Notes: generated by a model from the sequence alone, not told the origin. Shown: positions 2,389 to 19,038, numbered from the stretch's first letter. The stretch: DNA of 26,638 nucleotides from an uncultured Erysipelotrichaceae bacterium (GCA_902783405.1 CACZQZ010000004.1:1-26638); one strand, 5' to 3'. Program-made: numbers and translations.

Positions 2389-3828
2389 ATGGAAAAAATT
2401 ACAATTGATTCATTACTTCAAAATCTTGAAGGAAGGTCACTCACTGAATTAGAAAAAATTCGTAAGGCGTATAATTATGCAGATAATTTACATTATGGAC
2501 AACTGAGACAAAGCGGAGAAGCATATATTACGCATCCACTTACTGTAGCTTATATTTTATCTGAACTTGGAGCAGATACGGATACAATATGTGCTGGACT
2601 TTTACATGATACACTAGAAGATACGGAAACAACCAAAGAAGAAATTGCAGAGTTATTTAATAAAGATGTTGCTAATTTAGTAGATGGAGTAACCAAAATT
2701 AGTAAGTTAAATTTTTCATCAAAACAAGAACAAAATATGGCTAATGCTAGAAAAATTATTACAAGTATTACAAATGATGTAAGAATTATTATTATTAAAC
2801 TTGCTGATCGCTTACATAATATGCGAACTTTAGAGTATAAATCAGAATATAAGCAAAAAGAAAATTCAATAGAAACGATGGAAATTTTTGTTCCTATTGC
2901 TTATCATATTGGAACTTACCGAATCAAAAGTGAACTTGAAGATTTATCATTACGTTATTTGAAACCAGATATGTATAAACAAATAGAAGATAAAAAAATA
3001 AAAGTGGAAGAAGATAGCAAAACGTGCTTAAAAGAAATGTATGAACAAATAAAAGATATATTAACTAGAAAAGATATTCCTAATGAAATTAAAGTTAGAA
3101 CTAAAAATATTTATGGTATTTATAAAAGATTAAATGATGGCCATAAATTATCTGATATTCATGACTTGTTATCATTAAAAATAATGGTTGATGATATACC
3201 AAATTGTTATCAAACACTTGGTATGATTCATAATATTTATCATCCAATTAATAATAAATTTAAAGATTATATTTGTAATCCCAAAACAAATATGTATAAA
3301 TCTCTTCATACAACGGTATTTGGACCAGAAGAAAGACTTGTACAAACACAGATAAGAACTTTTGATATGGATAAAGTAGATTCTTTTGGACTAACAGCTT
3401 ACTGGAATATTAGTAAAGGAAATGCTAGAGATATTATGCAAAAAGAATTAAAAGAAAAATATCAATTCTTTAGATCTCTTTTAGAAATTAATAAAGCATT
3501 TGGAGATAACAGTGAATTTATTGAACAAGTAAAAAATGAATTATTATCAGATAAAATATATGTATATACATCTAAAGGAGATATCATAGAACTTCCTAAA
3601 GGATCAACACCAATTGATTTTGCTTACAAAATACATACTGAACTGGGAAATACAATGGTAGCTGCTATTGTAAATGATGAGTATGTACCAATTGATTGTA
3701 CTTTAAAGAATCAAGATAGAGTAAGAATTATTAAAGATGATTTATCTTTTGGGCCTAGAAAAGATTGGGAAGATAAAGTCGTAACAACAAAAGCTAAAAG
3801 GAAAATTAAGGAATTTAATAAAAAATAA
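2389..3828 (+). CDS. RelA/SpoT family protein (479 aa): HD hydrolase + degenerate synthetase + TGS, no ZFD/ACT domains
   Basis: HD motifs RQSGEAYITHP, LLHDTLEDT, KLADRLHNMRTL; synthetase-like KDYICNPKTNMYKSLHTTV and QTQIRT; TGS motif LPKGSTPIDFAYKIHTELG. RBS AAGGAGG. Confidence 0.95.
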   Translation: MEKITIDSLLQNLEGRSLTELEKIRKAYNYADNLHYGQLRQSGEAYITHPLTVAYILSELGADTDTICAGLLHDTLEDTETTKEEIAELFNKDVANLVDGVTKISKLNFSSKQEQNMANARKIITSITNDVRIIIIKLADRLHNMRTLEYKSEYKQKENSIETMEIFVPIAYHIGTYRIKSELEDLSLRYLKPDMYKQIEDKKIKVEEDSKTCLKEMYEQIKDILTRKDIPNEIKVRTKNIYGIYKRLNDGHKLSDIHDLLSLKIMVDDIPNCYQTLGMIHNIYHPINNKFKDYICNPKTNMYKSLHTTVFGPEERLVQTQIRTFDMDKVDSFGLTAYWNISKGNARDIMQKELKEKYQFFRSLLEINKAFGDNSEFIEQVKNELLSDKIYVYTSKGDIIELPKGSTPIDFAYKIHTELGNTMVAAIVNDEYVPIDCTLKNQDRVRIIKDDLSFGPRKDWEDKVVTTKAKRKIKEFNKK

Positions 3829-3884: not shown

Positions 3885-5096
3885 ATGGAGATTAAATATG
3901 ACTTAACAGAAAAAGAATTAAAAGAGGTAGCAAAAAAAAATAATAAAACAATTGAAGAAGTTGCTAACGATTATAAATATGCATTAAAAGATTTAGAATA
4001 TTCATTAAAAGAGATAAATTCAATAATTGAAAAAAACAATTATAAAACTGATTTTAATAATATCAATATTAAAGGGTATGGAAAGAATGATGAATTAAAA
4101 AATAAATATATATGTTATGATAATATTGAAAAGGCCAATACATATAACATAGATGATATGGCTATTGTTACTGGATTTGGACCAACGAGTGCACCAACAG
4201 CCGGTACTTTATCGTCAATTTTTAAAGTATTAGAACTACAACGAGAAACAGGCATATATACACATATTATCATATCAGAACTTAGTGCACTTAATTCAAG
4301 ACAAAAACCATTAGATGATTTGTTTTTATATACTAAACAGTTCATTTCTTTTATAAAAAAACTTGGCTTTGATGAATCAAATGGGGAAATTAGAACTCAT
4401 AATTTCTTGGATCACTCCAGAATTTTTTCGATTATTTCAAGTGTTTTTAAAATTAGTGATTTTATAGGTGGAGAAGTAACAGATGAAATGTATAAGAGAT
4501 TAAATTTACTTGGAAATGATTACTCAACAATCGTTAGTCAAGTGTATACTGTTGCTGATATTGTTTTGCCAATCATAAGAGATAAGAAAAAATTTGTTAT
4601 AGTTCCAGCAGGACTAGAAGAACATTTATATCCATATCTTGCTCGTGTAAGTGTAGAAAGAATAAAAAGTAAATCAGGAGGAATAAATAATTTAATAGAA
4701 AAAGATGCGACCGTTTGTGCTTTATATGGTAAATTAATTAGTGGATTATTTCCTTACGTTAAAATGTCAAAGAGTATTAAAGAATCATCAATTAACTTAG
4801 GAGATACCAAAGAAGAAATTTATCAAAAAATAGTGGAATGTGGAAAAAGAAATGAGGAAGTAATATTACAGATGATTGTTCTTGCTTCTAATTGGAAATC
4901 GTCTGAAGTTCATATGGCAACAAAAGCATTTGAAAACATGGAAAACAATTATGATGAATGGTTAAAATATAAAATAAAGTATTATAATTTTTTTATAGAA
5001 CTTAAGCAATTGTGGGATGATTCTAAATATAATAAGTTCATAGATACATATAATGAGTTATTTAAGGAGAAAGAAAATGAAATTAATTATCTGTGA
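3885..5096 (+). CDS. Divergent class Ic aminoacyl-tRNA synthetase-like protein (archaeal-type TrpRS/TyrRS-like), function unknown
   Basis: GFGPTSAPTAGT in place of GFxPSGxxHLGH; IIISELSAL; VADIVLP; VPAGLEE; SGLFPYVKMSKS followed by INLGDTKEEIYQKI. RBS GAGAGGT. Confidence 0.75.
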   Translation: MEIKYDLTEKELKEVAKKNNKTIEEVANDYKYALKDLEYSLKEINSIIEKNNYKTDFNNINIKGYGKNDELKNKYICYDNIEKANTYNIDDMAIVTGFGPTSAPTAGTLSSIFKVLELQRETGIYTHIIISELSALNSRQKPLDDLFLYTKQFISFIKKLGFDESNGEIRTHNFLDHSRIFSIISSVFKISDFIGGEVTDEMYKRLNLLGNDYSTIVSQVYTVADIVLPIIRDKKKFVIVPAGLEEHLYPYLARVSVERIKSKSGGINNLIEKDATVCALYGKLISGLFPYVKMSKSIKESSINLGDTKEEIYQKIVECGKRNEEVILQMIVLASNWKSSEVHMATKAFENMENNYDEWLKYKIKYYNFFIELKQLWDDSKYNKFIDTYNELFKEKENEINYL

Positions 5097-5868
5097 TATG
5101 AGTGGTATTGCTTCAAGTAAGGGTGTAAATAATGAGATATTATTAAATACACTTAATAACTTGAAAAATTATGAATGCACTTTTTGCACTGGTAAAGGAT
5201 ATAATGGAGGGTATCAAACTTTGAAAGATATTAATTTAAAAGTACCATTTATATGTGAAAATGGTTCTGTTATAGTAACTAAAGATGGTACCGCACTATA
5301 TCATGATAAAATGGATTATAATAAAATAAAAAAATTAATTTGTAAGTTAAATAAAATGCCATATGAATTTTTGGCATATGTTGATTTGAAATCCCATAAA
5401 TATAAATTTTTAAAAGGATGTAAAAAGCTAAGTGAAGATTTGAGTCAACCATGGTTTTATAGTGAAGAAATCTATGACAATATAGATGAATTTTTAAATA
5501 ACATAGATAAAAATAATATTTGCAGAATAACAACTAGAGGATTGGAACTAGATAATTCAATAGAAGAACTTAAAGATTTTGATGTTGTATTATCAGAAAA
5601 TGAATTTCATTCTATTTGTAATAAGGGAACGAATAAAGGCTTTGGAGTAAAAAAATTAGCAGATATTTATAACATTAAATTAAATGATATCATTATTATT
5701 GGAAATGATTTGAATGATATTGATATGTTTAAATTAGAGTGCAGTTTAAAAATTGCCACAGGTGAAACAAAGCCACCACGAGAACTAATTGATTTATCTG
5801 ATGTTTATGTTCCTTTATGTGATTTACCTGATTTTTTAACAAAAATTGACAAAAAAAATGATATATGA
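5077..5868 (+). CDS. Cof-type HAD-superfamily (IIB) hydrolase with atypical motifs (263 aa)
   Basis: MKLIICDMSG (motif I variant), CTGK, FICENGSVI, KGTNKGFGVKKL, IIIGNDLNDIDMF. RBS AAGGAG at 5064-5069 supports ATG 5077; overlaps the upstream gene by 20 nt. Confidence 0.85.
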   Translation: MKLIICDMSGIASSKGVNNEILLNTLNNLKNYECTFCTGKGYNGGYQTLKDINLKVPFICENGSVIVTKDGTALYHDKMDYNKIKKLICKLNKMPYEFLAYVDLKSHKYKFLKGCKKLSEDLSQPWFYSEEIYDNIDEFLNNIDKNNICRITTRGLELDNSIEELKDFDVVLSENEFHSICNKGTNKGFGVKKLADIYNIKLNDIIIIGNDLNDIDMFKLECSLKIATGETKPPRELIDLSDVYVPLCDLPDFLTKIDKKNDI

Positions 5869-5899
5869 TAGTATAAAAACAAAAAAGGGAGGAAGTATT

Positions 5900-7051
5900 A
5901 TGGGTGATATAGTTTTAACTGGTGATAGACCAACAGGAAGATTGCATTTAGGACATTTAGTTGGCTCATTATCCCAAAGAGTAGAATTGCAAAATTCTGG
6001 ACAGTTTGAACAGATTTTCATTGAAATAGCTGATGCCCAAGCAACAACGGATAATTCTGGAAACATTCAGAAGGTTAAGGACAATGTTATTGAAGTTGCA
6101 TTAGATTATCTTTCTTGTGGAATTGATCCAACAAAAAGTACAATTTTTTTACAATCAGAAGTACCAGAATTGAGTGATTTAACATTTTATTATATGAATT
6201 TAGTAACTTTAGCTAGATTGCAAAGAAATCCAACAGTAAAACAAGAAATTATATATAGAGGATTTAATAATACTATTCCAGTTGGATTTATGACGTATCC
6301 AATTAGTCAGGCAGCAGATATTACAGCATTTAATGCTAATGTAATACCTGTTGGTGACGATCAACTTCCAATGATAGAACAGACAAGAGAAATCGTAAGA
6401 ACATTTAATAGATTATATGGTGAAACTTTAGTTGAACCAAGAGCGGTATTACCTAAAAATGAATCTTGTCAAAGGTTACCAGGAACTGATGGACAAGCAA
6501 AAATGAGTAAGTCTATGGGAAATTGTATATTTCTAGCTGACTCTCCAGAAGAAGTTAAAAGAAAAGTAATGGGAATGTATACGGATCCTAATCATTTAAA
6601 AGTTTCTGATCCTGGGAAAACAGAAGGTAATCCAGTATTTATATATTTAGATGCTTTCTGTAAAGATAAACATTTTAAAGAATATTTTACCAATCAAGAA
6701 ACAGGAAAAATGGAATATAAAAATTTAGATGAATTAAAGGCACATTATGAACGTGGTGGCTTAGGAGATATAAAAGTGAAAAAATTCTTAAATTATGTTC
6801 TTCAAGATACTTTGACCCCAATACGTTCTAGAAGGCAAGAATATGAACAACACATATTAGAAGTATATAAAATTTTATTTGATGGAAGTGATAAAGCTAG
6901 AAAAATTGCTGCTGAAACACTTGGAAAAGTTAAAAAAGCTATGGGATTAGATTACAGAAATGATTTAGAATTAATTAATAATCAATGTGCTAAATATGGT
7001 TCGTCACCAATTAAAGTAGAAGAAAAAAAACTAGAGGCATATAAAAAATAG
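5900..7051 (+). CDS. trpS: Tryptophan--tRNA ligase, TrpRS-II (TGDRPTG) subtype (383 aa)
   Basis: TGDRPTGRLHLGH, IADAQA, RLQRNPTVKQE, YPISQAADI, PVGDDQLPMIEQ, KMSKS, YTDPNH. RBS GGAGG supports ATG 5900 rather than 5846. Confidence 0.96.
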   Translation: MGDIVLTGDRPTGRLHLGHLVGSLSQRVELQNSGQFEQIFIEIADAQATTDNSGNIQKVKDNVIEVALDYLSCGIDPTKSTIFLQSEVPELSDLTFYYMNLVTLARLQRNPTVKQEIIYRGFNNTIPVGFMTYPISQAADITAFNANVIPVGDDQLPMIEQTREIVRTFNRLYGETLVEPRAVLPKNESCQRLPGTDGQAKMSKSMGNCIFLADSPEEVKRKVMGMYTDPNHLKVSDPGKTEGNPVFIYLDAFCKDKHFKEYFTNQETGKMEYKNLDELKAHYERGGLGDIKVKKFLNYVLQDTLTPIRSRRQEYEQHILEVYKILFDGSDKARKIAAETLGKVKKAMGLDYRNDLELINNQCAKYGSSPIKVEEKKLEAYKK

Positions 7052-7070
7052 GATTTCATATCCTATTTTT
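7044..7070. terminator. Bidirectional terminator between convergent trpS and kinase-like gene
   Basis: AAAAATAGGA-tttcata-TCCTATTTTT perfect 10 bp inverted repeat overlapping both stop codons. Confidence 0.85.
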
Positions 7071-8193
7071 GTTTTACATGAATTGTTTTAATTATATAGT
7101 TAAATTTTTCTCTATAATTAAACCCTGATTTTAATATGAAACTTTCTATATTTTTAAAAATATCATTTAATTCTATCGTTCTTTTTTCTATATCAATGTT
7201 ATTATAGTTTAGTAATTCCTGAAATAGTAATACTGTTGGAGCAAGACTTAATTCTAAAAAGGATTTAACAATTTCGGTGGAGGAACATTTAGATATTTCA
7301 ATATTTTCTTTTTCCGTTATAGATACTTTTAAAGAATGTGTAATTCGCATATCACTAAATTCAACATTTTTTCCGATTATATCAAAATTAATCGAAAATT
7401 GATTTTTTTTACCATATTTAAATAATTCATTTCTATTTTTGTTTTTCATAGAAAGAAATGTCTCATTTATTATTCCTTTTTCTAAAAAGTAATCTTCAAA
7501 TGCTAAGTATGTTCCAACTCTAATATTAAAATAGTTTCGAATATTGTATGGTAAAATAGCACCTTGTTTTGTAATGTAAGTAGTTTCTTCTGTGATTATA
7601 TCCCAATTATTTAATGCAAATAGTAATGCAAAAGTAGTTTTACCTCCAAGACTTGAATTATTAATTAATATATTTTGATTATCTTTATTTACTAATCCAC
7701 CGTGTATACCATACAGTTCTCCGTACATAAGATAAGGTGTTAATAGTAAAATATTAATCATTGTAATTGCTTTTTTATTTTTTTTTACAATCATGAAACA
7801 TTCTTGTTTATTTTTATTAAAAATATATATAAAATAGGCATAACATTTTATTATGTAATATTTTTTGTCTTTTGAGCATTTTGCAAGTGAAGTAGTTAAT
7901 GTCGCTTTGTTAAAATCTTTAATAGCATTTGTTTCAATTAAATCGTTACTTTTGATATAATTGTTTATTCTATTAAAAATATTTTCATCTTCTACAATAT
8001 ATGTAATCAAAGTGTTATTACTGTTTTGTCCTTTAAAAAGATTATTAAAAGCATTGGAAAAATCGATTAATTTTTTTGAATAAAATTCATAGTAACAATT
8101 TACTTGTGTTATTAACTTGTTGTTTTTAAAAGTAATTTCTTTTTTTTTATGATTTTTTTTGTATTGATTTATTTCATTTATGATCTGTCTCAT
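7063..8193 (-). CDS. HPr kinase-related P-loop protein (HprK-related family), atypical motifs
   Basis: IHGGLV...ILINNSSLGGKTT...IITEETTYI matches the H(A/G)xxV...GxSGxGKS/T...xDD pattern of HprK-related kinases. Overlaps the upstream nucleotidyltransferase gene by 20 nt. Confidence 0.65.
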   Translation of the reverse strand: MRQIINEINQYKKNHKKKEITFKNNKLITQVNCYYEFYSKKLIDFSNAFNNLFKGQNSNNTLITYIVEDENIFNRINNYIKSNDLIETNAIKDFNKATLTTSLAKCSKDKKYYIIKCYAYFIYIFNKNKQECFMIVKKNKKAITMINILLLTPYLMYGELYGIHGGLVNKDNQNILINNSSLGGKTTFALLFALNNWDIITEETTYITKQGAILPYNIRNYFNIRVGTYLAFEDYFLEKGIINETFLSMKNKNRNELFKYGKKNQFSINFDIIGKNVEFSDMRITHSLKVSITEKENIEISKCSSTEIVKSFLELSLAPTVLLFQELLNYNNIDIEKRTIELNDIFKNIESFILKSGFNYREKFNYIIKTIHVKQK

Positions 8194-9271
8194 TATATAT
8201 CCTCCTATATTTATGAATTACATCATATGAAAATATTCGTTCTGTTATTGTTGAAGAAGTTATCATCTTTTTATTTTCATCTTCTTGCTCAAATATTATA
8301 TTTAATATATTTTCTGTTTTAATTTTACGTAATAAACTCTCAATTTGATTGCTTTTACTATCTGGAAATAATTCAGTTGTATATGTTAGTGAAAAATAAA
8401 TATATTTTTCTAAACTATATTTTTTAATCTCTTGATATAGAATATCTATATCAATTTCAGTAAAGTATTTTTTTATAAAATAATAAATGTCAATAAATTT
8501 ATATAAATCTAAAACTTTTCTTTTTTTTAATATACCGACTAGTGATGAATCTTTATAGAGATGTATACATAATTCTATAAAATTATGATAATAGTTTAAA
8601 GAATATATTGGGATGTTATCATTTTTTATAATTGAAATTCTATTTTTTAAAAAATAATCTACAATTTCATTATTGTTTTGACTCCAGTCTATTGAAAAAT
8701 TTAAATCAACATCAATGGTTTCGACAGCAGGATTATTGTTTTTTCTCACAAATGGTGCGGTTTCACCTCTGGTTAAAATACTTTTATCTAATTCTTCTTG
8801 TGTAAACTTTATTATTTTTTTATTTTTATAATCATATTTTCCTTGTATGAATCCTAAGTTATGTAAAATATTTGTTACTACTGGAATAGAATCCTTTTTT
8901 ATCAATATATCAATATCATTACTTGCTCTAGATCCGTATTTGAATAATGTATTATTTAAAATAGAACCTTTTAAAAAAACATATTCAATATTATTTTTAT
9001 CTAATTCATTAGAAATAATATTTATCCATTTATTTTGTTCTAATGTTCTCTCTTTTTGTAATTCATTTATCATGTATGTTGTGAAATATACTGGATAGTC
9101 AAATTTTCTTACACCGATTTTTTCCATCTTTTCATATGTTAAGCCGGCAACTCTATGGTATGTTAGGTATCCTAAAATATTAATCCAATTTACATTATTT
9201 AAAAAAAAATCATCGTGTACATTTACATCATATTTTAATAATTCCAAAATTAATTTATGTTCTTGATTCAT
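8174..9271 (-). CDS. Nucleotidyltransferase family protein (uncharacterised NTP_transf_5 type)
   Basis: FLKGSILNNTLFKYGSRASNDIDILI and C-terminal LCIHLYK...FIDIYYF pattern. RBS GGAGG on the minus strand. Confidence 0.85.
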   Translation of the reverse strand: MNQEHKLILELLKYDVNVHDDFFLNNVNWINILGYLTYHRVAGLTYEKMEKIGVRKFDYPVYFTTYMINELQKERTLEQNKWINIISNELDKNNIEYVFLKGSILNNTLFKYGSRASNDIDILIKKDSIPVVTNILHNLGFIQGKYDYKNKKIIKFTQEELDKSILTRGETAPFVRKNNNPAVETIDVDLNFSIDWSQNNNEIVDYFLKNRISIIKNDNIPIYSLNYYHNFIELCIHLYKDSSLVGILKKRKVLDLYKFIDIYYFIKKYFTEIDIDILYQEIKKYSLEKYIYFSLTYTTELFPDSKSNQIESLLRKIKTENILNIIFEQEDENKKMITSSTITERIFSYDVIHKYRRIYNETDHK

Positions 9272-9362
9272 ACATTATTTGCCTCCCACAATGAAATTAA
9301 AGTATTTAATATATTCTATCATAAATCATCAAATTTAGAAATAAATTTTTCATATAGATTGT

Positions 9363-9391
9363 TTGTGTTATTTTAAGTTTTGTGATAAAAT
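9363..9391 (+). promoter_or_regulatory. Rightward promoter of the divergent intergenic region (AKR / HAD-TrpD-like unit)
   Basis: TTGTGT (9363-9368), 17 nt spacer, TG-a-TAAAAT extended -10 (9386-9391). A minus-strand TG-a-TAGAAT near 9314-9322 could drive the leftward operon. Confidence 0.55.
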
Positions 9392-9420
9392 ATGGGGAAT
9401 AAATCATTTGAGGTGATTTC

Positions 9421-10299
9421 ATGGATGATATTCGTATTTCAAAGATAGGATTAGGGACTTGGTTACTGGGTGGAGATGTTAAGGCAAATATTAATAATAA
9501 TGATGAAAAAGACTTAAATGCTATTAAGTATGCGATTAAAAATGGAATTAACCATATAGACACATCAGAAAGTTATTCTGGTGGAAAGAGTGAAATACTA
9601 ATTGGACAATCAATAAAATGTTTTGAACGTAATAAAATTTTTATTGCTACTAAAGTTAGAGAGTGGAATTTATCATATGATAAACTTATATTATCATGTA
9701 TGAAATCTTTAAAACGGTTGGATACAAATTATATAGATCTATATTATGTGCATAAACAAAATAAAGCAATTCCAATTGAAGAAACATGCAAAGCATTAAA
9801 CTATTTATTAGAAAAAGGTTTTATAAAAAATGTCGGATTATCAAATGTTGGCATAGAAACGATTGAAAAATTTAATTTATTATTAGATAAGCAAGTATAT
9901 GCAGTTCAAAATCAGTATAATTTGATTTGTAGAGAGTCTCAGGTTAAAGGAATTATTGAATATTGTAGAAAAAATAATATTAAATTTATATGTTGGAGAC
10001 CAATTTTATTATCATATCCGGGAGTCTCTGATCCGATGTATAAAAAAGGTACTTATCCTGTGCTTGATGAAATGGCAAAAAAATATCATGTTTCGAATGT
10101 TCAAGTCGTTGCTAAATGGTTGCTACAGCAAGATAACGTATATATTATATTTAAGAGTAATAATATAAAGCATATTCAGGAAATATTAGAAACACAAAAT
10201 TTTAATCTTTCAAGGAAAGATTGGCAAATATTAAACTATAATTTTCCAATTCAATTTGACAGGGGATGTGCAAGTAATGAATTTTATGAAGTTTCCTAA
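9421..10299 (+). CDS. Aldo/keto reductase
   Basis: IGLGTW, GINHIDTSESY (Asp/Tyr), IATK (Lys), DLYYVH (His), VGLSN, QNQYNL. RBS GAGGTG. Confidence 0.95.
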   Translation: MDDIRISKIGLGTWLLGGDVKANINNNDEKDLNAIKYAIKNGINHIDTSESYSGGKSEILIGQSIKCFERNKIFIATKVREWNLSYDKLILSCMKSLKRLDTNYIDLYYVHKQNKAIPIEETCKALNYLLEKGFIKNVGLSNVGIETIEKFNLLLDKQVYAVQNQYNLICRESQVKGIIEYCRKNNIKFICWRPILLSYPGVSDPMYKKGTYPVLDEMAKKYHVSNVQVVAKWLLQQDNVYIIFKSNNIKHIQEILETQNFNLSRKDWQILNYNFPIQFDRGCASNEFYEVS

Positions 10300-12079
10300 A
10301 GCATTTCTACTTGATTTAGACGGCACTGTATTGGATACAGAATCATTGTATTTACAATTAATGATGAATTATAATAAAAAATATGGTCTACATATTTCAA
10401 AACAATTTTATATTAATAACTTTTTAGGAAAATCTAGGGATGTTATATCAGAAATTATGAAAATAAGATGGAAAGATAAATATGATGAAAACGAATATTG
10501 GATGGGCTTATTAAAATATAGAAAAGATTATTTAAAAAATAATAAAGTTAAAGCAAAAGAAGGATTTTTAGAATTTATAAAATATGTAAAACTAAATCAT
10601 AGTTATATTGGAATTGTGACATCAAATTCTTTGGATTTAGTAAAATTTTTACTACAACAAGCAAATATAAATGAAAATGATTTCGATATTATTATTTGTA
10701 GAGATAATGTGGAAAAGATAAAACCATATTCAGATTTATATGAATTTGCTATAAAAAAATTAAGAATAAAAAAAGAAGATATCATTGTTATAGAAGATAG
10801 CCCTATCGGTATTGAGGCAGCTATAAATGCTAATTTAAAAATTATAAATATAAAAGATATTGCTTTTGTAAATAAAGATTTAAATCAGAAATGTTGCATG
10901 ACTATCAATTCATTCTATGATATCATTAATTTTATGAAAATGTTGGAGGTCAATATGGAAATAATCAAGTCAAAAAAAAACAAAGAACCTTTTGAATCTT
11001 TGTATAAATTGAATGTAGGTTTATCCTTAGATGAATATGAGGCAGAAGAAGCTATGAACATTATATTAAATGAATCGGATATACAAAAAAGAATTAGTTT
11101 ATTAACAATGTTATTAAATGGCATAATGATAAAAGGGCCAACGGTTAACGAAATTAGTGGATTATTAACTGCTTCATTAAATATGGATGATGTACTAAAA
11201 AGTAATAAGTTAGAAATTAAAATGCCTAATAATGATATGATTGTTGGCGTTGCATCTAGTGGAAAAAAAGGAATTAAAACAATTAATATAACAACCGTTT
11301 CATGTTTTGTAGCTGCTGCATGTGGTGTAAATATTGCGAAGGCATGTTCACATTCTACATCATCAAAGACTGGATCAACTGATTTTTTAGACATTTGTGG
11401 TATAAATGTAAATATACCATTTGAAAAAAAAGTTGAAATATTTAAAAAACACCATATTTCATTCTTTTCTATTGAAGAGACAACACCAAAATTTGCTAAA
11501 GTTTATGGTGGAATATTTTATGCACCACATGCAATGAGTTTTGGATTAGCAGGATTAAGTTTTCCAATAAAAGTTGATTCACTTGCATATGGATTATCAC
11601 ATCCAAATGTAAAATTATCTGCTGAAGTTTTGAAAAAATTTGGGGTGAAGAATGCACTTATCTATTCTTCAACATACGATGGTATTCATTTTTTAGATGA
11701 ACTGTTGCCAGTTGGATGTGTAAATTTTGCTAGGATTAAAAATGGGAATGTAGAAAAAACTATTTCAGCGGATATACATGAAGCTTTAGATTTGACATCT
11801 GGTTTTGATTTATCTAGTATTAAAGAAAAAGAAGATAAAAAAGACAATGTGATAGAATCTATAAAAATTTTACACGGTGATGGTACGGAAAGTCAAATTG
11901 ATACAATTTGTATTAATGTTGCAATATTTTTATTACTTGGTCATAAAGTAGATTCATTAGAAGAAGGTTATAGGAATGCAAAAAGTATAATTAAAACTAA
12001 TAAAGTATGGAATTTATTTTTAAATGTAGTTGAATTATATGGTGGTAGTAAAGAGTATATTGAAAGTTTACTACTTTAG
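10277..12079 (+). CDS. Fusion: HAD-IA phosphatase (N-terminal ~226 aa) + divergent anthranilate phosphoribosyltransferase (TrpD)-like domain (from Met at 10955)
   Basis: HAD motifs DLDGTVLDTE, IVTSN, KIKPYSDLY, IEDSPIGIEAA. TrpD-like motifs KGPTVNEISG, ASSGKKGIKTINITT, KACSHSTSSKTGSTD, FLDE, INVAIFL. RBS AGGGG before 10277 and a second RBS GGAGGT before in-frame ATG 10955. Confidence 0.85.
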   Translation: MNFMKFPKAFLLDLDGTVLDTESLYLQLMMNYNKKYGLHISKQFYINNFLGKSRDVISEIMKIRWKDKYDENEYWMGLLKYRKDYLKNNKVKAKEGFLEFIKYVKLNHSYIGIVTSNSLDLVKFLLQQANINENDFDIIICRDNVEKIKPYSDLYEFAIKKLRIKKEDIIVIEDSPIGIEAAINANLKIINIKDIAFVNKDLNQKCCMTINSFYDIINFMKMLEVNMEIIKSKKNKEPFESLYKLNVGLSLDEYEAEEAMNIILNESDIQKRISLLTMLLNGIMIKGPTVNEISGLLTASLNMDDVLKSNKLEIKMPNNDMIVGVASSGKKGIKTINITTVSCFVAAACGVNIAKACSHSTSSKTGSTDFLDICGINVNIPFEKKVEIFKKHHISFFSIEETTPKFAKVYGGIFYAPHAMSFGLAGLSFPIKVDSLAYGLSHPNVKLSAEVLKKFGVKNALIYSSTYDGIHFLDELLPVGCVNFARIKNGNVEKTISADIHEALDLTSGFDLSSIKEKEDKKDNVIESIKILHGDGTESQIDTICINVAIFLLLGHKVDSLEEGYRNAKSIIKTNKVWNLFLNVVELYGGSKEYIESLLL

Positions 12080-12196: not shown

Positions 12197-12466
12197 ATGA
12201 TTTATAAATTTAAATTCTTTTTTACAGATGGAACTTCACAACTTGGTGATGCTTGGAGTAAAAATCCGCGAACATTATATAATGATTTTGATGGGTTGAT
12301 GGATTGGAATGAGTTTGAACAATTACATAATGAAGATTTAACAGTTCATCAAGTTTTAGAATTAGCTATGGAAGTTTATAAACCAATAAGAAAAGAATAT
12401 TATAGAATTGAAATAGTCAATGTTGATACTGGTGAAGTTGTAGATTATATTGATATTAGAGAATAA
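12197..12466 (+). CDS. Hypothetical protein (89 aa, acidic)
   Basis: RBS AGAGGT, clean ORF, motif resemblance to 12964-13275. Confidence 0.75.
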   Translation: MIYKFKFFFTDGTSQLGDAWSKNPRTLYNDFDGLMDWNEFEQLHNEDLTVHQVLELAMEVYKPIRKEYYRIEIVNVDTGEVVDYIDIRE

Positions 12467-12508
12467 AATGAAAGGAAAAAATAGGGTATATTTGAAATAA
12501 TTATTTGC

Positions 12509-12533
12509 AGAAGGATTTTTTCCTTCTTTTTTT
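12509..12533 (+). terminator. Intrinsic terminator
   Basis: AGAAGGA-ttttt-TCCTTCT followed by a T-run. Confidence 0.75.
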
Positions 12534-12605
12534 GTTGAAAAAATTTGATAAATTAAATCTTATAACGATATAAAGAGAATAATAACAACTTATGAAAAAG
12601 ATTCA

Positions 12606-12923
12606 TTGCTTAATTTATTAATTAAAAATGATGAATTACAAAGAAAAATAAGAGGATATCATTATCGTAATAATAAATTATATTCACTAATAGTATTGTA
12701 TTTTGTAGAAGGTAAGAATGAATATTTATTATCAGCATTTAAATGGTATTTTGATGATAAAAACTTCTCTATTAAAAATATTAATAATTCATATAGTATT
12801 GATGATTGTTTGTTTTACGGCTTTCCAATTTTTGATAAAGATTACTATGATATTATGAAGAAAGTGATAATTAATTTAAATAAAAATTATAAAAACAAAA
12901 TAAGAATTAGAAATCAGTATTAA
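12606..12923 (+). CDS. Hypothetical protein (105 aa, TTG start), possibly frameshifted from ATG 12592
   Basis: ORF fills the gap between neighbours. Weak RBS; out-of-frame ATG-A5 14 nt upstream. Confidence 0.5.
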   Translation: MLNLLIKNDELQRKIRGYHYRNNKLYSLIVLYFVEGKNEYLLSAFKWYFDDKNFSIKNINNSYSIDDCLFYGFPIFDKDYYDIMKKVIINLNKNYKNKIRIRNQY

Positions 12924-12963
12924 TTTGTGTTATTATGTTTGTAATGGATGGTGGTAAACTATT

Positions 12964-13275
12964 ATGATAAATTTAGAAGAATTAAAATTTAATAAGAATA
13001 ATCAATTATATGAAACCGGATATAGGATTGTGTATTTTTATGAAGATGGTAATTATTCTATTGGAGAGTTTTGTAAAACAATTGAAGGTTTTATGATTGG
13101 ATTTGCTGATAGTAACCCAATTATTGATGATGAAGATATACCAAAATTTATTTCAAATAAGGATTTATTAAATAGATGTTTAAAATATGATGAAAAAGCA
13201 ATTGGTGCTGCTATTTATAAAACAGATGGGACTTTAATTGATAGAATAAGTAGTAAAGCTAATAAAAAAATCTGA
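12964..13275 (+). CDS. Hypothetical protein (103 aa)
   Basis: RBS GGTGGT, clean ORF, motif resemblance to 12197-12466. Confidence 0.75.
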   Translation: MINLEELKFNKNNQLYETGYRIVYFYEDGNYSIGEFCKTIEGFMIGFADSNPIIDDEDIPKFISNKDLLNRCLKYDEKAIGAAIYKTDGTLIDRISSKANKKI

Positions 13276-15388: not shown

Positions 15389-17215
15389 ATGATTATAACA
15401 AAATCTACATTATTAATAATTTTTAGTATTATATATATAAGTGCAATGATTGGCATTTATTTTGCTAAAGAAAGAGAAAAAAATGAGGAAACTAGAATAT
15501 ATACATATCTTTTGATAACCAATTTATTTAGTTTGATATTTCAAATTTTATGCATTATATATTCATATAACTATGATTGTCTTAATATGCATATGTGTAA
15601 TTTTATATTTAAAACGTATTCTGTTTTATTTTTGGTTTATGTGACATATTTATTGATATATTTAGTCATTATTAGTTTTGATAATTATAAAAAAATTATG
15701 TGGGTAATTCATACATTATTAAATATTAGTGTTGTTATTACATTTTTATTACCAGCAAAATTATATGTATCCCCTGATAAGTCTTCTTTTTATACAACAG
15801 GATTAGCTATGGATTTTGTGTATTTTGTGTCGCTTGTTATTTCAACTTCCATTATTGCAATATTATTTATAAAAAGAAAAAAAATATCAAAAGTTAAAAC
15901 GATACCTTTACATAGTTTTGTTGTTCTTGGTTTAGTTGCAATGATTATTCAAAAAATAAATCCAGAATTAAGTATAATGAGCGCTGTTGAAACATTTTTA
16001 TGTTGTATGATGTATTTTACGATTGAAAATCCAGATTTAAAAATGATAAGACAACTAGAATTAGCAAAAAACGGTGCTGAAAAAGCAAATAGAGCTAAAT
16101 CAGATTTCTTATCTAGTATGTCTCATGAAATTAGAACACCACTAAATGCTATTGTAGGTCTTTCTGAAGATATTGCTTCATATAAAGATCAAGTACCAAA
16201 AGAAGTGGTAGAAGATACAGAAGACATCCGAAATGCATCCCAAACATTACTTGAAATTGTTGGAAATATCTTAGATATCAATAAAATTGAAAGTAATAAA
16301 ATAGAGATTGTAGAAACAACATATGTACCAAAAGAATTAATTGAAACATTAGCTAAAATAAATGCTACTAGAATAGGGGAAAAACCAATTCATTTTAATA
16401 TGAATATCGCAGAAGATCTTCCTTATGAACTTTTAGGCGATAAACTTCATATTAAAGAAATAATTAATAATTTACTTAGTAATGCTTTTAAGTATACAGA
16501 TAGAGGAGAAGTTACTTTAACAGTAAAATGTATTAATAAAGATAATCTTTCCAACTTAATTATCAGTGTAAAAGATACAGGCCGCGGAATTAAAAAAGAA
16601 AATATTGATAAATTATTTACTAAATTTGAACGACTAGGAGCAGACAGGAATACAACCATTGAGGGAACAGGACTAGGTCTTGCCATTACAAAAAATTTAA
16701 TTGAAATGATGGGGGGGACTATTAATGTTCAAAGTCAATTTGGAGAAGGATCTTTATTTGTTGTATTCTTACCACAAAAAATAAGTAAAATGGAAAAACC
16801 AGATGTTGTAGAGTTAAAACAAGAAGTTACTAAAGAAGTAAAAGATTATGGACATAAAAAAATACTTATTGTTGATGATAATATGCTAAATATTAAAGTA
16901 GCTAGAAGAGCGCTTTCTGATTTTAATTTTGAAATAGATGAAGCAACCGATGGATATAGATGTTTAGAAAAAGTAGTAAAAGGTAATGAATATGATTTAA
17001 TTTTAATGGATATTATGATGCCTAATATGGGTGGTGAAGAAACTTTATCTAAATTAAAAGAAAATCCAGAATTTAAAATACCTACTATTGCTTTAACTGC
17101 AGATGCTGTTGCTGGAGCAGAAGAAAAATATAAAGAAGAAGGATTTATTGATTATTTAGCAAAGCCTTTCTCAAGAAATCAGATTAAAGAAAAATTAGAG
17201 GAAATATTTAAATAA
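15389..17215 (+). CDS. Membrane-bound hybrid sensor histidine kinase/response regulator
   Basis: About 7 hydrophobic N-terminal segments; HisKA FLSSMSHEIRTPLNAIVG; HATPase NLLSNAFKYT, DTGRGI, GTGLGLAI; receiver ILIVDDN, ILMDIMMP, AKP. ATG 15389 is the Met with an RBS-like AGGA upstream. Confidence 0.95.
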   Translation: MIITKSTLLIIFSIIYISAMIGIYFAKEREKNEETRIYTYLLITNLFSLIFQILCIIYSYNYDCLNMHMCNFIFKTYSVLFLVYVTYLLIYLVIISFDNYKKIMWVIHTLLNISVVITFLLPAKLYVSPDKSSFYTTGLAMDFVYFVSLVISTSIIAILFIKRKKISKVKTIPLHSFVVLGLVAMIIQKINPELSIMSAVETFLCCMMYFTIENPDLKMIRQLELAKNGAEKANRAKSDFLSSMSHEIRTPLNAIVGLSEDIASYKDQVPKEVVEDTEDIRNASQTLLEIVGNILDINKIESNKIEIVETTYVPKELIETLAKINATRIGEKPIHFNMNIAEDLPYELLGDKLHIKEIINNLLSNAFKYTDRGEVTLTVKCINKDNLSNLIISVKDTGRGIKKENIDKLFTKFERLGADRNTTIEGTGLGLAITKNLIEMMGGTINVQSQFGEGSLFVVFLPQKISKMEKPDVVELKQEVTKEVKDYGHKKILIVDDNMLNIKVARRALSDFNFEIDEATDGYRCLEKVVKGNEYDLILMDIMMPNMGGEETLSKLKENPEFKIPTIALTADAVAGAEEKYKEEGFIDYLAKPFSRNQIKEKLEEIFK

Positions 17216-17334: not shown

Positions 17335-17363
17335 TTGACTAAATCTTTTTAAATGAATATAAT
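17335..17363 (+). promoter_or_regulatory. Near-consensus sigma-A promoter of gltX
   Basis: TTGACT (17335-17340), 17 nt spacer, TATAAT (17358-17363). Confidence 0.85.
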
Positions 17364-17379
17364 TAAGTTGGTGATTTTT

Positions 17380-19038
17380 ATGACAAATAAAGAATTAGCA
17401 GACATTATGTTTCCAAATGTGAAACATGATATAGAGTATTATGAAAATTTATATCCAGAGCGAAATTTAAAAGAAGGAGCAGTCGTATCTAGATTTGCAC
17501 CAAGTCCAACAGGATTTGTACATATGGGAAGCTTGCTTGCCGCTTTCATCGAAAGAAAAGTGCCAAAACAAACAGGGGGAGTATTCTTTCTTAGAATTGA
17601 AGATACAGATGGAAAAAGAACAGTTGAAAATGGTATTGGTGGAATTATTGCTGATTTAAAGGCTTTTCATATCGATATAGATGAAGGTGTAATTAGTGAA
17701 ACTGAAAGTAAGGGTGAATATGGACCTTACATTCAAAGTGAGAGAAAAGAAATATATGAAACTTATGCTAAATATTTAGTAGAACAAGGACTCGCTTATC
17801 CTTGCTTTTGTACACCAGAAGAAATAGAAGAAATAAGAAGTGTTCAAGAAAAGAAAAAAGACCGTATTGGATATTATGGAAGATGGGCTAAATGTAAATA
17901 TTTAAGTAATGAAGAGAGAATAGAGAGAATCAAAAATGGAGAAAAATTTATTGTAAGATTAAATTCTCCAGGTAACTTTGATAATAAAGTTGTTTTAAAT
18001 GATTTAGTAAGAGGAAGAATCGAAATGCCAGAAAACGATATGGATATCGTTTTAATTAAAAGTGATGGCCTTCCATTATATCATTTTGCTCATGTTATTG
18101 ATGATCATTTAATGAGAACAACACATGTCTTAAGAGGAGAAGAGTGGATTCCATCAACTCCATGTCATTTACAATTATTTAAAATCTTTGGTTGGAAAGC
18201 TCCTAAATATGCACATTTAGGTCTAGTTATGAAAATTGGCGAAGATGGTGCTAGAAGAAAACTATCCAAAAGAAAAGATCCTGAAGCAGCTGTTAGTTTT
18301 TATCATGAAAAAGGAATTCCAGTAGAAGCTGTTAAATATTATTTAATGACGATTGCTAACTCTAATTTTGAAGCTTGGTGGGATCAGAATAAAGATAAAA
18401 CTTATGATGATTTTACTTTTGATTTTAAGAAAATGAGTTTGAGTGGTTCATTATTTGATTTAGAAAAACTTCTTAATATTTCAAAAAATTATATTAGTAC
18501 GATGAAAGCAGAAGAATTATATGATGAATTAGTTACATATACTGAAGAATTTGATTCTGAATTTCATCAAATTTTAAAAAATGATAAAGATTATGCTTTA
18601 AAAGTTTTAAATATTGAAAGAGAAAAGAAAAAACCTCGTAAAGATTATGCTATGTATAGTGATATAAGAAAATATTCTTGGTATATGTTTGATGAATTAT
18701 TTGAAAAAGAAGAAAAAACATATGATTTTCAAAATATCAATGATAAAGATGAAATTAAGAATATCGTAAATGAGTATTTTACTAATTATTATGATGAAAA
18801 TGATGATCATGAAACTTGGTTTAACAAAATGAAAGAACTTGCTAAAAAATTAGGTTATGCAGATAATATGAAAGACTATAAAGAAAATCCAGATAATTAT
18901 AAAGGAAACATTACTGATATTGCAACTGTTATTAGAGTAGCTATAACAACTCAAGCACAAACTCCAGATTTATATGAAATATTACAAGTTCTTGGTAAAG
19001 ATAGTATTTTAAAGAGAATAGAAAAAGAGTATTACTAA
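17380..19038 (+). CDS. gltX: Glutamate--tRNA ligase (long ~550 aa clostridial-type form)
   Basis: SRFAPSPTGFVHMGS, LRIEDTD, AYPCFCT, HVLRGEEW, KLSKRK. RBS GGTGA supports ATG 17380; the ORF-track start at 17353 lies inside the promoter. Confidence 0.97.
   Translation: MTNKELADIMFPNVKHDIEYYENLYPERNLKEGAVVSRFAPSPTGFVHMGSLLAAFIERKVPKQTGGVFFLRIEDTDGKRTVENGIGGIIADLKAFHIDIDEGVISETESKGEYGPYIQSERKEIYETYAKYLVEQGLAYPCFCTPEEIEEIRSVQEKKKDRIGYYGRWAKCKYLSNEERIERIKNGEKFIVRLNSPGNFDNKVVLNDLVRGRIEMPENDMDIVLIKSDGLPLYHFAHVIDDHLMRTTHVLRGEEWIPSTPCHLQLFKIFGWKAPKYAHLGLVMKIGEDGARRKLSKRKDPEAAVSFYHEKGIPVEAVKYYLMTIANSNFEAWWDQNKDKTYDDFTFDFKKMSLSGSLFDLEKLLNISKNYISTMKAEELYDELVTYTEEFDSEFHQILKNDKDYALKVLNIEREKKKPRKDYAMYSDIRKYSWYMFDELFEKEEKTYDFQNINDKDEIKNIVNEYFTNYYDENDDHETWFNKMKELAKKLGYADNMKDYKENPDNYKGNITDIATVIRVAITTQAQTPDLYEILQVLGKDSILKRIEKEYY

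Follow-up and report, generated by a model that had tools for sequence, protein, structure and literature searches.

A mobile gene cassette around TrpRS-like and TrpD-like proteins with conserved, non-canonical active-site motifs in a reduced Erysipelotrichaceae genome

Introduction

Antibiotic clusters can contain enzymes resembling aminoacyl-tRNA synthetases (aaRS), as well as self-resistant aaRS copies (PMC12945691; PMC9437257). AcmF of the ascamycin pathway and SbzA of the SB-203208 pathway use aminoacyl-tRNA (the ascamycin cluster is reviewed in PMC12945691), and no TrpRS-like protein figures in a 2022 review of aaRS paralogues (PMC9437257). In lasso peptides, an HprK-like kinase phosphorylates a hydroxyl and a nucleotidyltransferase then adds a sugar to the phosphate (PMC8498205). 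In anthranilate phosphoribosyltransferase (TrpD), the GTGGD loop serves the 5'-phosphate of phosphoribosyl pyrophosphate (PRPP) and the amine of anthranilate, loop roles that we take from PMC9835598. Here we analyse a locus in which a TrpRS-like protein, an HprK-fold protein with a nucleotidyltransferase and a TrpD-like domain are encoded together, at positions 3885-12079 of a 26,638-nucleotide stretch from an uncultured Erysipelotrichaceae bacterium (GCA_902783405.1 CACZQZ010000004.1:1-26638, hereafter the window). The window is contig C4 of an assembly of 0.97 Mb in 142 contigs, 87% complete and with about 25% G+C.

We assign a probability of roughly 0.6 to the reading that 3885-12079 is one copy of a horizontally mobile seven-to-eight-gene cassette that makes a Trp-linked, ribose-derived metabolite, with a TrpRS-II-type enzyme providing immunity or supply. 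Our searches of the literature for this gene combination and for TrpRS-like, TrpD-like and TrpD2 proteins returned no description of the cassette. A first-pass annotation of the same DNA had pointed out that a TrpRS-like protein, a Cof-type HAD protein (Cof-HAD), a kinase and a TrpD-like domain all deviate at signature residues while their frames stay intact, and had proposed co-adaptation to a novel substrate rather than decay.

Results

The altered motifs are fixed in intact genes under purifying selection

All four deviant motifs were found where they had been reported, both by translation and in alignments to solved enzymes. Signature positions are affected in each, as had been claimed; the deviation is milder than it first appeared in two of them, since TAGT of the TrpRS-like protein aligns with TIGN and the kinase keeps its GKT core. 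The description of full-length frames with good ribosome-binding sites (RBSs) and overlapping stops and starts was accurate: every open reading frame (ORF) at 3885-12079 is intact, a Shine-Dalgarno sequence precedes the true starts of Cof-HAD (5077), trpS (5900) and HAD-TrpD (10277), and overlaps of 20, 20 and 23 nt join TrpRS-like to Cof-HAD, kinX to the nucleotidyltransferase (NTase) and the aldo-keto reductase (AKR) to HAD, respectively. The remaining enzymes, AKR, NTase, the second HAD and trpS, do carry canonical motifs, as had been stated (D47/Y52/K78/H111, GS...DID, DLDGT, and HLGH with KMSKS).

Orthologous clusters, about 40 in number, and 120 homologues from metagenomes carry the same substitutions, so that the suggested comparison with homologous clusters found them fixed and not private to this genome. 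A first pass of dN/dS estimates against the window was near saturation (dS about 1), and closer pairs were then used. By the pairwise NG86 method on pairs with dS of 0.03-0.8, dN/dS was 0.07-0.22 for TrpRS-like, 0.06-0.18 for Cof-HAD, 0.14-0.19 for kinX and 0.08-0.14 for TrpD-like, with 0.11-0.15 for NTase, 0.12-0.32 for AKR, 0.05-0.07 for trpS and 0.05 for rel. The four deviant genes (0.06-0.22) thus lie far below 1, as the earlier suggestion of selection would have it, and match the values of the canonical NTase and AKR. Sequence comparison places the deviant proteins, as conserved members, in four distinct subfamilies that seem to be uncharacterised. All four keep the chemistry-bearing core of the fold, the altered residues being those that contact the canonical substrate or assist catalysis.

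The TrpRS-like protein is a distinct class Ic synthetase paralogue

The TrpRS-like protein (3885-5096, plus strand, 403 aa) is a class Ic synthetase paralogue that Pfam PF00579 matches weakly and that scores 36.9 bits against the NCBIfam trpS model (TIGR00233), far below the equivalog cut-off of 176.75, whereas the real trpS next to it reaches 241. The AlphaFold2 (AF2) model has a mean predicted local distance difference test (pLDDT) score of 86 and comprises a class Ic Rossmann catalytic fold and a C-terminal helical domain; its top Foldseek matches are archaeal/eukaryotic TrpRS and TyrRS (E 1e-12 to 1e-9, template modelling score 0.5-0.6). A profile of close TrpRS-like sequences gave no match in the PDB at E <= 0.01, and the alignment to solved TrpRS signatures was obtained with a broader TrpRS-like alignment. 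There, TAGT (4197-4208) aligns with HFGH of Aeropyrum pernix TrpRS (3a04) and with TIGN of Bacillus stearothermophilus TrpRS, and only two positions differ between TAGT and the TIGN of this bona fide TrpRS. Because the TIGN of an active TrpRS occupies the same place, the "loss of HIGH" is not evidence of lost adenylation.

Compared with solved TrpRS (3jxe, 3a04, 3tze; 1d2r), the TrpRS-like protein shares the class Ic fold, an invariant KMSKS (4761-4775) and the Asp of the VAD motif; its signature position carries T-x-G-T, in register with TIGN and HFGH. It differs in reading GLEE for GxDQ, in its own hallmark GFGPTxxPTAGTL, which contains TAGT, in about 90 extra N-terminal residues outside the actinomycete forms, and in always standing beside or fused to a TrpD-like protein and near a real TrpRS or TyrRS. 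When 5.8 billion proteins were searched, 378 TrpRS-like homologues were returned at E <= 0.001, and PTAGTL and KMSKS are invariant in all of the best 120 of these 378 (60-82% identity). Apart from the Tyr-type variant, which has HMGT, the full hallmark is present in every TrpRS-like protein of the loci described below, including actinomycete proteins at 30% identity. In an alignment reaching down to that identity, 14 of the 17 positions in 93-109 do not vary, compared with 58 of the full 403; by this measure, conservation of the hallmark exceeds chance.

The TrpD-like domain keeps pyrophosphate and Mg ligands and lacks the anthranilate residues

The TrpD-like (Glycos_transf_3) domain (10955-12079, plus strand; Pfam PF00591, 3e-28) is clearly related in sequence to TrpD: its profile matches solved TrpD at E 1.7e-38, and YbiB is not among its PDB matches at E <= 0.001. 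It shares the Glycos_transf_3 fold with TrpD, TrpD2/YbiB and type II nucleoside phosphorylases, and it scores 134.2 against the trpD model TIGR01245, whose cut-off is 199.05. In alignments to solved TrpD, GTGGD is replaced by (A/G)SGK(K/E/D), here within ASSGKKG (11252-11272), and KHGNR by K..S(H/R), here KACSH (11339-11353), both located by translation. The anthranilate-binding N138 and R139 of KHGNR are thus exchanged for S and H/R, and conservation does not extend to the anthranilate Arg segment. Retained are the Lys, SS..GS.D and DE that form the Mg/pyrophosphate ligands; D248 is invariant, and LDEL aligns with MDEI. SGK and K..S(H/R)..SS..GS.D are found in 22/22 TrpD-like proteins, SGK, K...SS..GS.D and DE are invariant across 19-22 sequences, and nine of the 19 invariant columns of the alignment fall in the two motifs. 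As the pyrophosphate/Mg ligands are kept, the 5'-phosphate loop is changed and the anthranilate residues are gone, the domain is best understood as a putative ribosyl transferase with a different acceptor.

In this window only, the TrpD-like domain forms one in-frame ORF of 607 aa with a preceding HAD-IA (beta-PGM-like) phosphatase domain (10277-10954, plus strand; Pfam HAD_2, 3e-28), the ORF running from 10256/10277 to 12079 with its junction at about 10945-10957. HAD-IA and TrpD-like are always separate genes in orthologous clusters, adjacent or overlapping, and an internal RBS (GGAGGT) and ATG at 10955 are retained here and match the separate TrpD-like start of the orthologues. A stop codon lost recently, or an error of assembly, may account for the fusion. 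HAD-IA itself, with its canonical DLDGT, is the least constrained gene of the set (about 45% identical between loci), and one relative (L009, 16612-17301) carries an in-frame TAA at 16870. Since it evolves fastest and is missing from the cassettes of candidate phyla radiation (CPR) type, HAD-IA looks dispensable.

A serine replaces the acid/base aspartate in one sub-type of Cof-HAD

The Cof-type HAD-IIB protein (5077-5868, plus strand; ORF opening at 5053, likely start at 5077) matches Pfam Hydrolase_3 (PF08282) at 2e-25 and scores 81.7 against TIGR00099, below the cut-off of 137. By translation, DMSG lies at 5095-5106 and GNDLND at 5701-5718. Aligned to Escherichia coli YidA (1rkq), DMDGT becomes DMSGI and GDQEND becomes GNDLND: the nucleophilic Asp is retained, the acid/base residue at Asp+2 is Ser and Thr+4 is Ile. 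The protein has the same Hydrolase_3 fold as YidA, Cof and YbiV, with motif II Thr/Ser, motif III Lys and motif IV ND in register, and differs from them by an Asn for the first Asp of GDxxND. DMSG, followed by the Ile at Thr+4, is found in 17/17 Cof-HADs of Trp-type cassettes, whereas those of sister cassettes read D[IL]DG; sister Cof-HADs with a canonical motif I also carry GNDxND.

kinX and NTase resemble a kinase/nucleotidyltransferase pair

kinX (7063-8193, minus strand, 376 aa) encodes a two-domain P-loop protein of PEPCK/HprK fold, assigned by AF2 modelling and structure search. No Pfam or NCBIfam family matches it at E <= 0.01, including the Hpr_kinase_C and HprK-related kinase models, and its sequence profile gave only an insignificant match to the KaiC P-loop in the PDB. 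The AF2 model (pLDDT 90.6) is matched by PEPCK over its whole length (Foldseek E 2e-7) and by the HprK/P catalytic domain over residues 159-376. VIA-align gave Z 9.3-9.7 for HprK/P (root-mean-square deviation 3.0-3.7 A over 130 residues) and Z 10.6 for PEPCK, unrelated rows staying below Z 5, and structural neighbours in the ESM Atlas include "HprK-related kinase B" and ScmC. These matches justify a kinase-fold name for the modelled protein. By translation, its Walker A motif NSSLGGKT lies at 7636-7659 and its acidic pair TEE at 7585-7593 (both minus strand). SLGGKTT and TEETTY are invariant in 16/16 kinX proteins; the Walker A core GGKT is kept, variation being confined to the first Gly, which L023 retains, and the exchange of ADD for TEE is conservative.

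The adjacent gene (8174-9271, minus strand) encodes an NTP_transf_5 nucleotidyltransferase-fold protein (Pfam PF14907, 2.5e-29), which has the canonical GS...DID motif, gives weak matches to the resistance nucleotidyltransferases Lnu(C) and ANT(2'') and always adjoins kinX in orthologous clusters. NTase is translationally coupled to kinX. We considered a lasso-peptide tailoring cluster, that is, a cluster for a ribosomally synthesised and post-translationally modified peptide, and rejected it: cyclase, protease, PqqD and precursor are absent among all ORFs at 3885-12079 and their orthologues.

A TrpRS-II-type trpS and a reductase accompany the deviant enzymes

The cassette also holds a trpS of TrpRS-II subtype (5900-7051, plus strand; 241 bits against TIGR00233, above cut-off), with canonical HLGH and KMSKS. 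Its best solved relative is Deinococcus radiodurans TrpRS II (E 4e-115), the next structure following at 1.6e-67. The only synthetase genes of Trp/Tyr kind in its own genome are tyrS, this trpS and the TrpRS-like paralogue. With the trpS of other cassettes the window's copy shares 79-86% identity, with that of the same genus only 47-51%; on these identities, trpS travels with the cassette. G181 has a second TrpRS copy. CPR-type cassettes carry a linked TrpRS of another type, at 30-38% identity, and one locus (L015) carries both types. Because the linked TrpRS differs in type between cassettes, the linkage is functional and not inherited.

A member of the same family, G021, has two TrpRS-II-type trpS genes (G021:C21, which is L032, and G021:C2), 77% and 60% identical to that of the window, and no TrpRS-like gene was detected in it. 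Either TrpRS-II-type trpS also circulates without the cassette, or the G021 contig is cut.

AKR (9421-10299, plus strand; Pfam PF00248, 1e-58) has a canonical tetrad and is conserved in Trp-type cassettes, including L012, in which tblastn recovered it at full length. In variant cassettes its place is taken by a short-chain dehydrogenase/reductase (SDR) or a medium-chain dehydrogenase/reductase (MDR) of alcohol dehydrogenase (ADH) type.

The cassette is patchily distributed and occurs in several forms

Scans of genomes and metagenome contigs yielded 23 + 23 loci, whose synteny was established by ORF calling with a simple script and BLAST. This gene set, its order kept or rearranged, was present in 16 genome loci and about ten metagenome loci, under record titles that include Bacilli, Tenericutes, Patescibacteria, Saccharibacteria, Paceibacteria, Elusimicrobia, Thermoanaerobaculia and others. 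The order of the window (TrpRS-like, Cof-HAD, trpS, kinX, NTase, AKR, HAD-IA, TrpD-like) is kept in about 18 loci labelled Bacilli or Tenericutes; seven loci labelled Patescibacteria, Saccharibacteria, Paceibacteria, Lithacetigena, Thermoanaerobaculia, HR35 and Flavobacteriales are rearranged and lack the two HADs. The TrpRS-like gene was found in none of 60 relatives, five of them of the same genus, and in 3/400 genomes of a sample of the order, whereas records named from other phyla hold it at 60-64% identity.

TrpRS-like and TrpD-like remain together where the rest of the cassette changes. They are fused in at least seven proteins, namely a 961-aa ORF of a metagenome-assembled genome (MAG) labelled Polyangia (L024, 8033-10918), which is followed by trpS, and six proteins of 717-761 aa (P0121-P0126); these fusions keep SGK(D), GFGPTxxPTAGTL and KMSKS. 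We infer from this that a TrpRS-derived ligase and a TrpD-derived transferase acting in the same pathway form the core of the cassette. An actinomycete variant (Micromonospora, Salinispora, Actinoplanes, Pilimelia) comprises TrpD-like, TrpRS-like, an SDR, an FAD oxidoreductase, trpS, HAD-IA and an EamA exporter. In Salinispora fenicalii (L027, 8372-9511), a phage-integrase-family gene stands directly upstream of TrpRS-like, at the position that TrpD-like has in the other actinomycetes, and hints at a mobile-element context.

A Tyr-type variant was found in one genome (L037; G302:C4, 4175-15553) and in four metagenome loci (L050, L051, L052, L057). It encodes CysD, CysN/CysC, TauE, a sulfotransferase, TrpRS-like (HMGT, 33% identity), TrpD-like (42%), an MDR dehydrogenase, a Cof-HAD with canonical DIDG and two tandem TyrRS, and it looks like a tyrosine/sulfation counterpart of the Trp/phosphorylation cassette.

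Genes around the cassette

Upstream of the cassette, ORF and family scans identified thrS (397-2160) and a short Rel of 479 aa with HD, RelA_SpoT and TGS domains (2389-3828). The short Rel is a second paralogue without the C-terminal ACT region, the other RelA_SpoT gene lying on contig C104, and is only 49-50% identical to the Rel proteins of the same genus, which have 717-746 aa. In Bacilli-type loci it adjoins both Trp-type and Tyr-type cassettes; as an obligatory cassette member it was rejected, since G006 has the short Rel without the cassette. Three small ORFs (89, 105 and 103 aa) without Pfam match lie directly 3' of the cassette (12197-13275), and the genes downstream of 12079 are unrelated, including an AMP-binding enzyme, a hybrid histidine kinase and gltX. 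Within 19 kb, thrS, trpS and a GluRS/GlnRS-family gene (17353-19038, 561 aa) occur together with the TrpRS-like paralogue, which makes the neighbourhood unusually synthetase-rich for a 1-Mb genome. No tRNA gene and no Rfam family (T-box, riboswitch) was detected in the window.

Discussion

A working model for the cassette can be put forward from these folds and neighbours. TrpD-like would transfer a ribosyl group from PRPP or a related donor to an acceptor other than anthranilate, giving a ribosyl-5-phosphate adduct, the sugar of which could be processed by the HAD phosphatases and the NAD(P)H reductase. TrpRS-like would most likely adenylate Trp with ATP and join it to the ribosyl partner, as MshC does for cysteine; alternatively, it could depend on aminoacyl-tRNA like AcmF and SbzA (PMC12945691), a mode that would account for the linked TrpRS. 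The HprK-fold kinase and the NTP_transf_5 protein may then add a phosphate to a hydroxyl and, subsequently, a nucleotidyl or glycosyl group, a role that 3'-phosphoadenosine 5'-phosphosulfate (PAPS) synthesis and a sulfotransferase could play in the sister cassette. The embedded TrpRS-II-type synthetase would either protect the producer from a Trp-adenylate-like product or supply Trp-tRNA. A more specific idea, which we put forward tentatively and with clearly less confidence than the biosynthetic reading itself, is that the cassette makes a new class of natural aaRS inhibitor, a tryptophanyl (in the sister, tyrosyl) ribosyl-phosphate/-sulfate mimic of an aminoacyl-adenylate, in reduced-genome gut/rumen Bacilli, CPR-like bacteria and actinomycetes, and that the housekeeping TrpRS of some producers has been replaced by the immune TrpRS-II-type copy of the cassette.

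Several points weigh against a metabolite-producing cassette. Every chemical step is deduced from folds and neighbours. The Trp-type cassette of this window contains no exporter. Neither this assembly, which is 87% complete, nor the nearly closed G254 genome showed any TrpRS besides the cassette trpS, which fits a housekeeping role as well as immunity, and Ser at the acid/base position of Cof-HAD may signal a non-catalytic or non-phosphatase role. In addition, the dN/dS values were calculated pairwise, with composition uncorrected, from MAG sequences that are AT-rich and whose ORFs a simple script had called, and the organism names are titles of MAG records that may be wrong.

The small AT-rich genome (0.97 Mb) and four neighbouring enzymes without textbook motifs could have suggested that the proteins are non-functional relics whose motif changes are private damage. 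This view is refuted: the substitutions are not private, since dozens of orthologues, some at only 30% identity, have the same residues fixed, and with dN/dS far below 1 decay is rejected. The AF2 models are confident, the frames are intact and preceded by RBSs, and the gene that is damaged in a relative is the canonical HAD-IA. The alternative to decay offered by the first-pass annotation stands in part. Adaptation to non-canonical substrates is the natural reading of our data, whereas parallel, simultaneous swaps in several enzymes are unsupported. The TrpRS-like and TrpD-like signatures are ancient family hallmarks, found also, at 30% identity, in proteins of actinomycetes, under CPR labels and in fusions; all kinase-bearing cassettes have the kinase signature in common, and DMSG arose later and is confined to one sub-type. 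Nor do the four genes behave as one unit co-adapted in this genome, since they differ in their patterns of presence and absence and are modules of a mobile cassette.

The constant linkage of a real TrpRS or TyrRS, which is the sole TrpRS in two genomes, could instead point to a system centred on tRNA(Trp) and TrpRS, acting in tRNA modification, repair or alternative charging, in which TrpRS-like would bind tRNA, TrpD-like would bind nucleic acid in the manner of TrpD2/YbiB, and the kinase, HADs and NTase would process RNA ends. The C-terminal helical domain retained in the TrpRS-like model, the short TGS-bearing Rel beside Bacilli-type cassettes and the resemblance of kinase, HAD phosphatase and nucleotidyltransferase to RNA end-healing logic agree with it; T4 Pnkp is an RNA end-healing enzyme with such kinase/phosphatase logic. 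TrpD2 proteins, moreover, lack the PRPP motif and bind DNA (PMC9835598). We nevertheless regard this explanation as unlikely. The AKR, SDR or ADH, the FAD oxidoreductase, the EamA and TauE transporters and the PAPS/sulfotransferase genes of the variants point to small-molecule chemistry, the presence of the cassette in only 3/400 genomes of the order argues against a general function in translation, and the window is devoid of tRNA genes and Rfam elements. TrpD-like also matches TrpD at E 1e-38 and not YbiB at E <= 0.001, with its Mg/pyrophosphate ligands kept. Quite unlikely, too, is an island for resistance to, or detoxification of, an environmental compound that targets TrpRS, made up of an insensitive TrpRS-II-type enzyme and of a drug-modifying kinase, NTase, reductase and phosphatases. 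Such an island would account for the auxiliary TrpRS-II subtype of trpS, for the weak Lnu(C) and ANT(2'') matches of NTase and for the mobile, patchy distribution, and auxiliary TrpRS copies do confer indolmycin resistance (PMC9437257). However, drug modification hardly accounts for the invariant and sometimes fused TrpRS-like/TrpD-like core, the actinomycete and Tyr-type variants keep this core and a cognate aaRS without kinase and NTase, and PAPS synthesis genes and exporters fit production.

If the biosynthetic reading is true, the cassette represents an undescribed pathway, widely spread by gene transfer, around the first TrpRS-derived family of non-translational ligases and a re-tooled TrpD, in organisms whose genomes, at about 1 Mb, would not lead one to expect specialised metabolism and, in some of them, housing the sole TrpRS. 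The four proteins are also natural experiments in motif re-purposing under purifying selection, the clearest being the change of Asp to Ser in Cof-HAD, whose sisters keep the Asp. Annotating these genes as "tryptophan--tRNA ligase" and "anthranilate phosphoribosyltransferase" would be a mistake, one that some JGI homologue records already contain.

Across its variants, the cassette appears to follow a shared logic: an aaRS-like ligase, a TrpD-like transferase, an NAD(P)H reductase, a HAD phosphatase, a hydroxyl-decorating module and a cognate class Ic synthetase, with or without an exporter. By analogy, the hydroxyl-decorating module would be either kinase and NTase or PAPS synthesis and sulfotransferase. 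The first of these pairs recalls the lasso-peptide enzymes of Firmicutes (paeninodin, pseudomycoidin), with which it shares an HprK/PEPCK-fold kinase coupled to an NTP_transf_5-type enzyme, and also HprK-related kinases A and B and ScmC of the SynChlorMet cassette. The nearest Atlas structures to kinX are named HprK-related kinase B and ScmC; kinX reads SLGGKTT and TEE in place of GxSGxGKS and ADD, and it has an additional N-terminal PEPCK-like domain. As a whole, the locus can be likened to those of MshC (the CysRS-like cysteine:GlcN-Ins ligase), AcmF (ascamycin) and SbzA (SB-203208), in each of which an aaRS paralogue within a dedicated cluster attaches an amino acid to a sugar- or nucleoside-type acceptor; this likeness is one of description, and their aaRS classes and families (CysRS, AlaRS and IleRS) differ from that of the TrpRS-like protein. 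The ascamycin cluster, like the Tyr-type variant found here, also uses sulfation genes.

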